Assembly (NCBI GenBank): GCA_038204345.1
Contig: JBBRDB010000006.1
Location: 13,191 to 37,190, forward strand
Direction of reading: 5' to 3'
Origin: Thermoleophilia bacterium
GTDB taxonomy: Bacteria > Actinomycetota > Thermoleophilia > RBG-16-64-13
Length of the DNA stretch: 24,000 nt
Shown here: positions 19,463 through 22,945 of the stretch, piece after piece
How the letters are laid out: the number at the start of each line of letters is the position of its first letter
How positions within the stretch are numbered: position 1 is the stretch's first letter
The notes under the pieces: model-generated
What the model was told of the DNA's origin: nothing
Database searches by the model: none
Seen by the model: the letters and a program-made list of their open reading frames with translations, nothing else
Translations under genes and position numbers: made by a program

Positions 19463-19492
19463 TGGTGTCAACACCGCTCGAAACCTGGGCAC
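19463..19492. repeat. IS21 terminal inverted repeat, istB side
   Basis: TGGTGTCAACACCGCTCGAAACCTGGGCAC matches the reverse complement of 22916-22945 (TGCATGTTCCATCGCTCGAAAACTGGACAC) at about 20 of 30 positions with no gaps. In addition, GAAAACTGGACACC (19505-19518) is the perfect reverse complement of 22915-22928. Confidence 0.7.
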
Positions 19493-19523
19493 TATCCACC
19501 GGTTGAAAACTGGACACCAAGGA

Positions 19524-19940
19524 TCAACCCTCCGTCACGTCGAGCACCTCCTTCCGTTTGCCCTTCAGCCGGTAGCTCTCGCCCTTCAGTGTGATGATCT
19601 CCGCGTGGTGAACCAGGCGGTCGACGAGCGCGGAGACCGCCACCGGATCCCCGAAGATGTCCGTCCAGGCGGAGAAGGTCTTGTTGGAGTTCACGATGAT
19701 CGAGCTGCGCTCGTAGCGGGAACTGATGAGCGCGAAGAACAAGGAGGCGGCTTCGGGATCGAAGGGGATGTAGCCCACCTCGTCGACAATCACCAGCGGG
19801 ATGCGGGCCAGGCGCCCAAGTTCCTCGGAGAGCCTCCCGAAGCGCTTCGCCTCCGAGAGGCGGGTGACCCACTCCTGGGCCGAGGCGAAGGCCACCCGGT
19901 AGCCTTTGCGGGCGGCCGCCACCCCGAGAGCGATCGAGAG
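19524..19940 (-). pseudogene. istB: istB (IS21 helper ATPase), 3' part downstream of the IS110 insertion
   Basis: LSIALGVAAARKGYRVAFASAQEWVTRLSEAKRFGRLSEELGRLARIPLVIVDEVGYIPFDPEAASLFFALISSRYERSSIIVNSNKTFSAWTDIFGDPVAVSALVDRLVHHAEIITLKGESYRLKGK contains the IstB Walker B (VIVDE) and the C-terminal motifs. Confidence 0.85.
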
Positions 19941-19956
19941 GATGCTTCTATGTTTG

Positions 19957-21006
19957 TCAAGCCGCCGTTTGTGACTGCTCCAGCAGGCGAAACAGACGTC
20001 GAGCGAGGTGGCGTTTGAGGCAGCGCTTGATCTCTCGCGGCGTCTTGCCTTCCGCCAGCCGCCGATCTGCGTACGCCTTCGTCTCCTCATGATAGGCGAG
20101 CCGGGAGAGCACCACGGTGTGCAGAGCGCGGTTGAGCTGACGGTCACCTCCTCGGTTCAAGCGGTGGCGGACGATTTGACCGGAGGAGGCCGGCAGGGGA
20201 GCCACGCCGGCCAAGGAGGCGAAGGCGGCCTCTGAGCGCAATCTCCCGGCGTGTGACCAGGCGTTGAGGATCTGGGCGGCCGTGATCGTGCCCACACCCG
20301 TCTCCGCAAGGAGCTGAGGGGCGACTGCCTTGACCAGGAGCTCAAGCTGGGACTCGAGATCGGCGGCCTCGGCTTCCAGGGCCAACGCCCGCCGCGCCGC
20401 CGAGCGGAGCGCGGTGATGGTGGCCCGGTGCTCCACCGACTGGCTGGGGTTCGTGCGGAGTCGTGCAGCCCGTGTCAACTGCTCGTCGGTCGTCATGGTG
20501 CGGAAGTGGTGTCGGAGGCCCTCCGGGGCGCTCACGATCAGGGCCTTGAGCAGGGCGATGGCCTCGGTGCGCGACTGGACCGCGCCCTTGCGCGTAGCGA
20601 GCAGCACGCGGATGGCCTCCCGCTCTCCCCGTCTGCGGGGCTGGGCCAGGTGTTCACGGGACAGCGCCTCCCGCGCGGCGCGAACGGCGTCGAGTTCATC
20701 GGACTTGGCCCCGTTGCGGGTGGCCGGGCGTCGGGGGCGATCCACTTCGACCACCCACTCGTCGTGCTCGAGGAGGAAGGTGGTAAGACCGGCCCCGAAG
20801 CTCCCGGTGCCTTCGATGGCCCAGACGCGGCGTCCCCGCGCCCGCTCCTGGGCGAAGCCGAGGACCTTCTTGGCGCCGAAGGCGTCGGACGGGACCGTGA
20901 GCGAGTCCACCACGCCGCCCTTCACTTCGACGACGGCGGCCGTGTGGGAGTCGCGGTGGGTGTCCACCCCGATGACGTAGTCGATCCTTCCTTCCAGTGC
21001 CGGCAT
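19957..21006 (-). CDS. IS110-family transposase (DEDD/RuvC-like N-domain plus Transposase_20 C-domain)
   Basis: ATG at complement 21006 follows GGAAGGAGG. Motifs: MPALEGRIDYVIGVDTHRDSHTAAVV..., ...VWAIEGTGSFG..., and C-terminal GVGTITAAQILNAWSHAGRLRSEAAFASLAGVAPLPASSGQIVRHRLNRGGDRQLNRALH. The frame is uninterrupted (349 aa). Confidence 0.9.
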   Translation of the reverse strand: MPALEGRIDYVIGVDTHRDSHTAAVVEVKGGVVDSLTVPSDAFGAKKVLGFAQERARGRRVWAIEGTGSFGAGLTTFLLEHDEWVVEVDRPRRPATRNGAKSDELDAVRAAREALSREHLAQPRRRGEREAIRVLLATRKGAVQSRTEAIALLKALIVSAPEGLRHHFRTMTTDEQLTRAARLRTNPSQSVEHRATITALRSAARRALALEAEAADLESQLELLVKAVAPQLLAETGVGTITAAQILNAWSHAGRLRSEAAFASLAGVAPLPASSGQIVRHRLNRGGDRQLNRALHTVVLSRLAYHEETKAYADRRLAEGKTPREIKRCLKRHLARRLFRLLEQSQTAA

Positions 21007-21270
21007 CAAGCCTCCTTCCGGTATGCTGTTCACTACCGGCCTGGCCTGCTCGTGCGGCAAGACTGTGATGGGTCACGCCCTTCGGGACGGACAAGCTTCT
21101 ATGAAGCCACCCACGGCGGGCCCAGGCCGGTGCCGACACGAGGCGGGCAGACATATCCTGCGCCAAGGCACCTCGGAAGAACCGGGGGCCAATGAGTCTT
21201 TGGGTCATGCCCGTTCGTGCCGACTCCAACCTAGCAGCACCCTCGAAAGGGGCTGAACCGTATTCTCACA
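21007..21270 (-). ncRNA. Candidate IS110 bridge/seek RNA region (5' non-coding leader of the nested IS110)
   Basis: The 264-nt non-coding stretch lies between the element end and the transposase ATG, where IS110-group elements are reported to encode the bridge RNA. It has several imperfect hairpins. It also carries short matches to the element's own 3' end and to the flanking istB target (see findings). The exact RNA ends are unknown. Confidence 0.4.
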
Positions 21271-21627
21271 GTGCGTCTTGCCGGTGCCCGGAGGTCCGAG
21301 CAGGATCACGTTCTTGCGCTCGCAGAGGAAGTCGAGTTGGGCCAGGTGGGCGACGAGTTCCCGCTTGACCGAGCGCTGGAAGGAGAAGTCGAAGTCGTCC
21401 AGGGTCTTCACCTGGGGGAAGCGGGCGGCGCGCACGCGGTGCTCCCCGCCGTGGGTCTGGCGGGCCGTGACCTCGGCGTCGAGGACGGCGGCCAGATAGC
21501 GCTCGTGCTCCCATCCCTCCTCCCGGGCCCGTTCGGCGAGAGCACGGGCCGTCTCGGCGATGCGGGGGGCTTTCAGGGCCCGGGCGTAGAAGGCGATCTC
21601 GGCGTTCACGGCGGCCACGGCGGTCAC
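21271..21627 (-). pseudogene. istB: istB, 5' part up to the Walker A motif
   Basis: GTG at complement 21627 overlaps the istA stop (GTGA). VTAVAAVNAEIAFYARALKAPRIAETARALAERAREEGWEHERYLAAVLDAEVTARQTHGGEHRVRAARFPQVKTLDDFDFSFQRSVKRELVAHLAQLDFLCERKNVILLGPPGTGKTH. Element sequence follows. Confidence 0.85.
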
Positions 21628-22844
21628 CTCACCCCGACCAGAGCGTCGTAGACCGAAAGATCGGGCACGGGCAGGACCACGTCCCCGGCCAGAAGCGCCC
21701 GCCGGGCTGCCTTCGCCCGCAGGAGCTCCTCCGCGTGACCCGGGGCCACCACCACGTCGGCGGGGACGAAACTCCGGCGGTGGCACACGAGTTCGCGTCC
21801 TTCGCCGAACACGGTGACCCGCTCCAGGGTGAGGTGCACGCTGACGACGCGGGAGGCGAACGCCGGCGGCACGGAGTAGTCCACCCCGGCCACCCGCACG
21901 AAGCAGTCCCGGCTCAGCCGGGTGTGGATCTTGACCGAGGTGTCCGGCCACAGCGCGGGCAGCGGCCCCAGCGAGGCGCACTCGGTCCGGTGGGCCACCT
22001 CGGGCCGCGTACCCACGCGACGGTGGTGACGCTTCCAGGCGACCTGCAGCGCCCACTGGTCGTGTTGCTGCTGCAGGTCGGCCAGGGAGTCGAACTGCCG
22101 GAGCGGGAGGAAGGAGGTCTCCAGATAACCGTTCAGACGCTCCACGACTCCCTTGCTCGTCGGCTTGTAAGGCGGGAGAACGATGGGACGGACCGCCAGG
22201 GCACCAAGGAAGGCCGCCGCTTCGGGGAGCAGACGCCCGGTGTGACGGTTCACGATGGAGGCGTCCCGATCGACCACCAGCGACTGGGGCAGGCCGCCGA
22301 GGCGCGCAAACACGCCCGGGAGCGCCAGCGTGACGTCGGCGGCGGTCTTCGTGTGGGTGAAGGTGACGGCGTGGGCGGCCGAGTAGGGGAGCGTGCCCAC
22401 CAGGCCGAAAGCGGGACGCGTGTGGCCCTTGCCGACCGGCACCCGCACCTCTGTGGGCACATCCCACCAGTCGAGCTGGCAGATCTCGCCCGGGAGGTAG
22501 ACGGTGCGCTGGAAGGCGTCGGGCGGAGGGGTAAAGAGCGGTCGGAGTTCCGCGAGCAGCTACCGCAGGATGGTGATGCCGCCCCGGTACCCCTCTCCGC
22601 GCAGACGCTCGAGGATCACCGTGGCCGGCGCGGCGTGGTCCTGTCGCAGCATCGTGCGGATGGAGTCTTGGTGTCGATCGAGGAGTGAGGAAGACTTCGG
22701 CCGCAGATAGCGCGGCGCTTCCGTCAGTTCGAGTAGCCGGTGGACGGTGGTGCGGCTCATGCCGAGTCGCTCGGCTATGTGCTTCTTCGAGAGGCCCTCC
22801 CGCCTAAGGCTGCGGACCTCAACCCAATCATGCACGTCGTACAC
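21624..22844 (-). pseudogene. istA: istA (IS21 transposase) with a single in-frame TAG
   Basis: There is one reading frame from ATG at complement 22844 (MYDVHDWVEVRSLRREGLSKKHIAERLGMSRTTVHRLL..., HTH) to the stop at 21624. It is interrupted only by TAG at complement 22562-22560 (...GGITILR*LLAELRPLF...). Track ORFs 22560-22844 and 21624-22460 are in the same frame. Confidence 0.85.
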
Positions 22845-22915
22845 TCGCTTCCTCCTCGGAACCGCAGGAACGCTGCGACCGAGGATGACTCAGGATACCG
22901 GTCAGTGACTACCCG

Positions 22916-22945
22916 GTGTCCAGTTTTCGAGCGATGGAACATGCA
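22916..22945. repeat. IS21 terminal inverted repeat, istA side
   Basis: See the evidence for 19463-19492. It ends ...ATGCA at 22945. Confidence 0.7.

Follow-up and report, generated by a model that had tools for sequence, protein, structure and literature searches.

A probable RNA-guided insertion of an IS110-family element into the Walker A codons of an IS21 istB gene

The DNA analyzed here is a 24,000-nt stretch from a Thermoleophilia bacterium (GCA_038204345.1, contig JBBRDB010000006.1, positions 13,191 to 37,190 of the forward strand; hereafter, the window), in which an IS21-family element carries an IS110-family element inside istB, its helper ATPase gene. We conclude, with a probability of about 0.88, that the insert is an intact ISEc21-like IS110 element with a DEDD/Ser recombinase and a left-end bridge/seek RNA, and that it inserted site-specifically into istB. 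The guide RNA of this lineage appears to be set to parasitize IS21 elements. The coordinates of all features are collected in Table 1, and a vertical bar marks a junction.

On the minus strand, the left junction (21271|21270) reads ...CCGGGCACCGGCAAGACGCAC|TGTGAGAATACGG..., with the upstream read also given as ...CTCGGACCTCCGGGCACCGGCAAGACGCAC|TGTGAGAATACGG..., and the right junction (19941|19940) reads ...CTTGACAAACATAGAAGCATC|CTCTCGATCGCTCTCGGG.... The insertion separates the His codon from the Leu codon in GPPGTGKTH|LSIALG, which is position 107|108 of the Pfam IstB profile, and the rejoined istB comprises 119 + 138 = 257 codons from the GTG at 21627. This split and its repair confirm the nested insertion in the istB P-loop region that a first-pass annotation had read from the letters alone. 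The same annotation had called the insertion clean, and we agree: an inverted-repeat search found no repeat pair at the IS110 ends, and comparison with an empty site showed that no base had been duplicated.

Because the genome itself has no identical IS21 copy, the empty site was taken from a relative, sought in a 400-genome sample of the same class. The closest uninterrupted IS21 relative (L112, in genome G034; 86% identity over 430 nt and 93% near the site) reads ...AAGACGCAT|CTCTCGATC... (longer read GGCACCGGCAAGACGCAT|CTCTCGATCGCG) and is colinear with the rejoined flanks (CAY|CTC). Seventeen other istB genes are likewise uninterrupted and one (in G127) has a related IS110 at the same bond, which leaves 18 of the 19 without an insert; two paralogues of istB in the own genome, 72 to 79% identical, are also colinear across the junction. 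The first-pass annotation had proposed exactly such an alignment, while holding that the crossover could not be fixed from this copy alone and that a join through a shared CT would leave istB 1 nt short of frame. L112 reads CAT|CTC with no base missing, which fixes the crossover and excludes the shortened join. The effective crossover has the last base of the His codon on one side and the first base of the Leu codon on the other.

T is the first base of the element in every copy and C its last; the left flank closes with C or T, and the right flank opens mostly with C, sometimes with T, A, or G. The junctions thus read Y|T...C|C rather than showing a shared core of the IS621 type. A CT dinucleotide is indeed present at both junctions of the window copy, as had been noted, but as a crossover core it is incidental, because left junctions of relatives also read CAT|T (CAT|TGTGAGA and CAT|TATGAGA), without CT. 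When shared two-nucleotide cores (AC, CC, CT, and AT) were tried, none fitted both junctions in all copies, and only a join at the His/Leu codon boundary did so. The right donor guide reads the donor dinucleotide C|T, while the target is mostly CC or TC; the join falls between the two bases.

The insert has a single, intact open reading frame. Its recombinase matches PF01548 (DEDD_Tnp_IS110, 1.2e-15) and PF02371 (Transposase_20, 4.7e-17), which gives it the N-terminal DEDD (RuvC-like) domain and the C-terminal Tnp domain with catalytic Ser of the IS110 family; GVD, IEG, and SDELD motifs are readable, and its SSG motif aligns to the IS621 ESG motif containing S241. The element ends |TGTGAGAAT and CATAGAAGCATC| are kept in about 40 relatives. 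The right-end TTGACA lies 14 nt from the tip, so that abutted ends would give a -35 box, a 17-nt spacer, and an extended -10 box, an arrangement kept in all relatives, whereas in the integrated state no -35 box stands at the 17-nt distance from the left-end -10 box.

Upstream of the recombinase gene lies a long non-coding region that folds into a conserved two-loop RNA, as in other members of the IS110 family. In an alignment of the window left end with 15 relatives (A1), the consensus fold has five helices with 37 pairs and two internal loops. Paired cells amount to 92.3%, versus 82.3% in shuffles and 38 to 49% with slid partners, and compensatory changes occur in 20 of the 37 pairs; none of 500 shuffles reached either the paired-cell or the compensatory value.

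The strands of these loops match, and covary with, the target and donor flanks, and the left target guide (LTG) is the strongly supported one. It is the 5' strand of the first loop, follows the motif GCAUGACCC, and matches AAGACNCAY; in the window it reads AAAGACUCAU. Scored over 9 positions in 23 distinct element/flank pairs, the LTG agrees with the left flank of its own element at 7.7 and with the flanks of other elements at 5.0 (0 of 10,000 permutations). The nine elements located at other sites carry guides that fit their own flanks at 74 of 81 positions, for example, AAAGUGGAC, UAACCCCAU, AGCACAGAC, and AUUUCACAU.

The remaining guides were read in the same way. The 3' strand of the first loop, the right target guide read from A1, ends in GG (or AG) followed by AU, and the base reading nucleotide 1 of the right flank fits it in 10 of 13 cases (A-T, G-C); its pairing extends 2 to 6 nt by one count and over the core plus 1 to 6 nt by another. 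The AU, a dinucleotide of the handshake type, is the complement of AT in the right-end tip GCAT-C, and in L023 a tip reading GCGT-C is accompanied by the dinucleotide AC. In the second loop, UCACAG of the right donor guide is complementary to C|TGTGA across the abutted ends, and L084, with TGTAAGA, has UUACAG.

We then consider how often this site is used. Recombinase relatives (58 to 82% identical) were gathered from the class sample, GTDB genomes, metagenome contigs, and plasmids, giving 45 loci with at least one readable flank. The istB boundary was called when IstB ends in ...GK(T/S)H left of |TGTGAGA(C/A)T, when L(A/S)IALG starts right of CATAGAAGCATC|, or both. By this rule, 25 of the 45 loci (about 22 distinct flanks) lie at the same istB codon boundary, and Pfam places the start of the right flanks of L026, L080, L081, and L084 at PF01695 position 108 and the end of the left flank of L069 at position 107. 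The IS110 is always co-oriented with istB, and the interrupted IstB proteins are 32 to 80% identical to that of the window. Their hosts include metagenome-assembled genomes (MAGs) of Chloroflexia and Limnocylindrales and a complete plasmid of a cultured Arthrobacter (NZ_AP024656.1). The flank survey suggested by the first-pass annotation also turned up copies at other sites.

These other targets are of several kinds. L059 to L061 (Solirubrobacterales MAGs, with two copies in one contig) lie at ...AFKIH|FGDRL, the extreme C terminus of IS256-type transposase genes (Transposase_mut); they form a sister lineage of the istB-targeting copies, and their guide AAGAUCCAU is two bases off the istB guide. 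L054 and L064 lie at ...K(R/T)H|LADLR in a helix-turn-helix (HTH)-like gene; a weak PucR-type HTH match of the L054 target (E 0.008) fell below the cut-off and was dropped. L058, L063, L074, and L075 are found directly past the stop codon of a conserved gene, and further copies occupy unrelated sites. In a quick tree with midpoint root, the retargeted lineages are nested among the istB-targeting copies, and the CAY target end is kept at most retargeted sites. No copy of the clade with readable flanks was found in a P-loop gene outside the IstB family: every P-loop target is IstB-family (PF01695) and the other targets are not P-loop genes, which speaks against the earlier idea that P-loop genes are targeted generally.

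The sites that the guide could use in its own genome were also listed. Between five and seven fit an 11-nt guide model, about the chance expectation, and they include an empty istB in contig C215 and the Walker A region of dnaA. The dnaA site (L109:542-2020, contig C46), GGAAAGACCCAC|CTCCTG encoding GGVGLGKTH|LLQAI, is guide compatible, with 8 identities and 2 U-G wobbles of 10, a fit equal to or better than that of the occupied istB site. The dnaA gene is intact, as would be expected if insertion were lethal, and this site is a potential lethal off-target. A further guide-compatible site on contig C54 (about 1463, minus strand; GGAAAGACGCAC|CTCGGC, SGPGKTH|LGF) is unoccupied.

By analogy with IS621 and ISEc21, from which we infer excision, circle formation, and RNA-guided insertion, the life cycle may be outlined as follows. 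The element would excise as a circle with abutted ends, and a promoter driving both RNA and recombinase (TTGACA-17 nt-TGnGAGAAT) would arise at the circle junction. By bridging, the RNA would then connect this junction (GCAT-C|T-GTGAGA) with its target in istB (..CA-Y|C-TN), and recombination would insert the circle co-oriented with istB. Such an insertion would inactivate IstB, spare host genes, and let the element ride a multi-copy, plasmid-borne IS.

Recurrence at one boundary could also arise from one ancient insertion, after which an IS21+IS110 composite spread and diverged as a unit, so that no target specificity would be needed. The weak positive correlation between recombinase and IstB-flank identity (r = 0.24 and 0.46) points in that direction, but the individual cases do not. 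One MAG has two identical IS110 copies, L055 and L056, in istB genes that clearly differ (flanks 68% and 88% identical, target words AAGAGCCAC and AAGACCCAT); the 92% identical recombinases of L070 and L079 have flanks 61% and 45% identical; and the IstB interrupted by L065, the closest recombinase relative of the window (82%), shares only 37% identity with that of the window. An IS21 with a split istB, moreover, cannot move alone, and almost all related istB genes are empty. We consider a common composite very improbable. The insertions at the istB boundary are independent events, and the view of the first-pass annotation that one IS preys on another is upheld by this repeated use of the site in diverse IS21 elements and by the guide RNA that matches it. 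Chance insertion of a non-specific IS or an assembly chimera, for which the draft state of the source (294 contigs) might be cited, deserves hardly any weight, as the codon-exact junction recurs in about 22 other assemblies, including the complete Arthrobacter plasmid.

Two further alternatives concern how the site is recognized. The recombinase protein or the DNA structure might pick the site, with the RNA match incidental, and the CAY end kept at most retargeted sites could reflect a protein preference; against this, the LTG tracks the flank in the nine retargeted lineages to a degree that no permutation reached, and homologous systems are experimentally RNA guided (PMC11187229, PMC11208160). 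This explanation is improbable. It is harder still to credit an IS621-style exchange through a shared CT core into an istB with a pre-existing 1-nt deletion. CT does occur at both window junctions and is the donor core read by the right donor guide, but the closest empty site lacks no base, other left junctions have no CT, and the IS always runs from T to C whatever the flanking bases.

Several observations weigh against the site-specific, RNA-guided insertion that we favor. An Rfam scan of 19400-23100 (E <= 1) returned two chance matches and no bridge-RNA family. Between the LTG and the site that its element occupies there is one U-C mismatch, which falls on the third base of the Thr codon, and the pairing of the right target guide beyond the core + 1 is poor in istB-targeting copies. 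The handshake and right-donor-guide covariations depend on one variant each (L023 and L084, respectively). Finally, no second IS110 copy was found in the own genome, so that the element is single copy in this draft (294 contigs, 2.72 Mb, 64.5% GC) despite a perfect empty site in contig C215, and its current activity is unproven.

The core readers in the window RNA are U,U (LTG) and G,G (right target guide), which could wobble-pair with any pyrimidine pair and so tolerate a core mismatch. We tentatively extend this into a reading that we regard as possible though doubtful: the wobble core readers would let a target YC recombine with the donor CT, with the join after the first core base; with U at the Thr third position, the guide would be partly codon degenerate for K-T-H|L; the duplicated GCAUGACCC-guide module could be a second target guide; and the dnaA P-loop would be a standing lethal off-target.

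The module in question is found in the left ends of L055, L056, L062, L057, L064, L073, L091, and L025, which carry two tandem units of GCAUGACCC, a 9- to 10-nt guide, and UGG. The flank is matched by the first module in L062 and L091 and by the second in L057, and the two sites of the identical copies L055 and L056 are each best matched by a different module. In minimum-free-energy folds, one module forms the loop strand and the other lies in a distal hairpin. The tandem modules may supply two alternative guides.

The nearest known system is ISEc21, which homes into the DDE codons (second D) of IS3-family transposases with abutted ends and no duplication (PMC11187229, Siddiquee et al. 2024). 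Both elements have an upstream non-coding region encoding a guide RNA in which the match to the bottom strand precedes, in the 5' direction, that to the top strand, target conserved catalytic codons in a transposition gene of another IS, form a junction promoter from abutted ends in the circle (as predicted for the window element), and duplicate no bases at the target; the recombinases are 36.6% identical and the right-end tip is similar (TTGACTCTTAGAAGGGCGTC|). The join described above agrees with what was reported for ISEc21, and an ISEc21 copy in an IS3 transposase, reading FHSD|...|QGSHYTSRQF, has no shared dinucleotide either. The present element differs in that its target is the Walker A K-T-H codons of the IS21 helper ATPase IstB rather than a transposase DDE motif, its hosts are Chloroflexota and Actinomycetota rather than Enterobacteria, and its guide and tip sequences are different. 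On an Escherichia coli plasmid (L102, NZ_CP010123.1), two tandem IS110-family genes, 38 to 40% identical to that of the window, lie inside an IS3-family transposase gene, with a right flank reading ...NSPMERFFRSLKNEW.

For IS621, the guide strands, core, and handshake guides have been described (PMC11208160, Durrant et al. 2024; PMC11208158, Hiraizumi et al. 2024); its LTG has the sense of the target top strand (PMC11208160), and both partners contain CT, with the top strand cut after T (PMC11208158). The window element resembles it in the two-loop left-end RNA, in the top-strand sense of the LTG and left donor guide, in the complementarity of the right target and donor guides to the top strand, in the handshake-type dinucleotide after the right target guide, in the donor core CT, in the -35 box of the right end and -10 box of the left end, and in the DEDD + Ser chemistry. 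Protein similarity is nevertheless very low (E 1.8e-5 against PDB 8WT6, C-terminal domain only), and IS621 shares its CT core between target and donor and targets repetitive extragenic palindromic (REP) sequences, whereas the target of the window clade is mostly CC or TC with the join after the first base. IS4321/IS5075 of the IS1111 group are also described as exploiting a conserved stretch of some other mobile element as a safe site (Partridge and Hall 2003, as cited in PMC11208160), and this general habit is shared by further IS110/IS1111 members whose targets are mobile-element ends.

The literature searched contained no description of an IS110 insertion at an IstB Walker A target. Strategy and machinery alike are known from the ISEc21/IS3 precedent, and the IstB P-loop target and its clade appear to be undescribed. 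The case is a clear natural one of a transposon RNA guide aimed at catalytic-motif codons in the helper gene of another transposon, and it extends the precedent to IS21, Chloroflexota, and Actinomycetota. Within the clade, natural guide-target pairs number more than 20 and natural retargetings at least five (IstB, the IS256-type transposase C terminus, the HTH-like gene, the 3' end of a gene, and the tip at the right end of a sister IS110), and the targets lack the CT core. Together these are useful starting material for learning how bridge recombinases can be programmed and for broadening that capacity. For annotation, split istB pseudogenes are explained.

Table 1. Positions in the window of the host element, the insert, and the predicted guides
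Feature	Position	Strand	Basis or remarks
Host IS21-family element	19466..22967	-	2172 bp without insert; terminal inverted repeats, IstA- and IstB-type Pfam matches
istA	21624..22844	-	HTH, rve_3, and Mu-transposase C domain; in-frame stop 22560-22562
istB 5' part, codons 1-119, ends ...GPPGTGKTH	21271..21627	-	PF01695 positions 3-107; GTG start at 21627
istB 3' part, 138 codons + stop, begins LSIALG	19524..19940	-	PF01695 positions 108-237
IS110-family element, ISEc21-like subgroup, 1330 bp	19941..21270	-	Single copy in assembly
DEDD/Ser recombinase gene, 349 aa, intact	19957..21006	-	ATG at 21006; GGAGG 4 nt upstream of ATG
Left-end tip TGTGAGAAT, extended -10	21262..21270	-	Direct reading
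Right-end tip TTGACAAACATAGAAGCATC; TTGACA is the -35 box, overlapping the stop codon	19941..19960	-	Ends of relatives and reading
Left-end non-coding region encoding predicted bridge/seek RNA, two internal loops, 264 nt	21007..21270	-	RNAalifold, 16 sequences
Left target guide AAAGACUCAU(U)	21191..21201 (AAAGACUCAU, 21201-21192)	-	Sense of target top strand CAAGACGCAC
Right target guide GCGCAGG (3' GG reads target C|C), then AU (21155-21156)	21155..21163	-	A1
Left donor guide CAUAGAAGCUU	21093..21103	-	Same sense as right-end tip CATAGAAGC; (A)UAGAAGC in second loop repeats tip
Right donor guide AUCACAG	21063..21069	-	Complementary to C|TGTGA across the right-end/left-end circle junction

The host element has the composition of the IS21 family, with istA (HTH and DDE integrase core) ahead of istB (IstB-type AAA+ ATPase) and inverted repeats at both termini. 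The terminal repeats (19466-19518 and 22915-22967; 53 nt, imperfect, 75% complementary) move its end from 22945, where it had first been placed, to 22967. The nonsense codon in istA and the split istB make it a doubly inactivated, dead element. No direct repeat that could be an IS21 target-site duplication was recognized at its ends (left flank ...ACCTGG, right flank ATCGCC...), so that either the ends are misplaced by a few bases or this copy underwent rearrangement.

A three-level nest was seen at L101 (Arthrobacter sp. NicSoilB8 plasmid NZ_AP024656.1, about 2060-4970). Here istB is split at the usual site by an IS110 with a 65% identical recombinase, and the right end of this IS110 (CTTGACAGAC|ATAGAAGCATC) is split in turn by another IS110, 47% identical. 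This inner element has a guide region (CAUGACAGAACUGG) similar to that tip, pointing to one IS110 aimed at the end of a sister element.

Elsewhere in the window, another IS with an IS3-type OrfB (rve, rve_3, HTH_21) occupies 6523-7557 on the plus strand. The remaining large open reading frames are mostly without a Pfam match, the exceptions being Golvesin_C (3346-4626), Amidase_6 (15623-17497), and DUF5050 (17553-18644).

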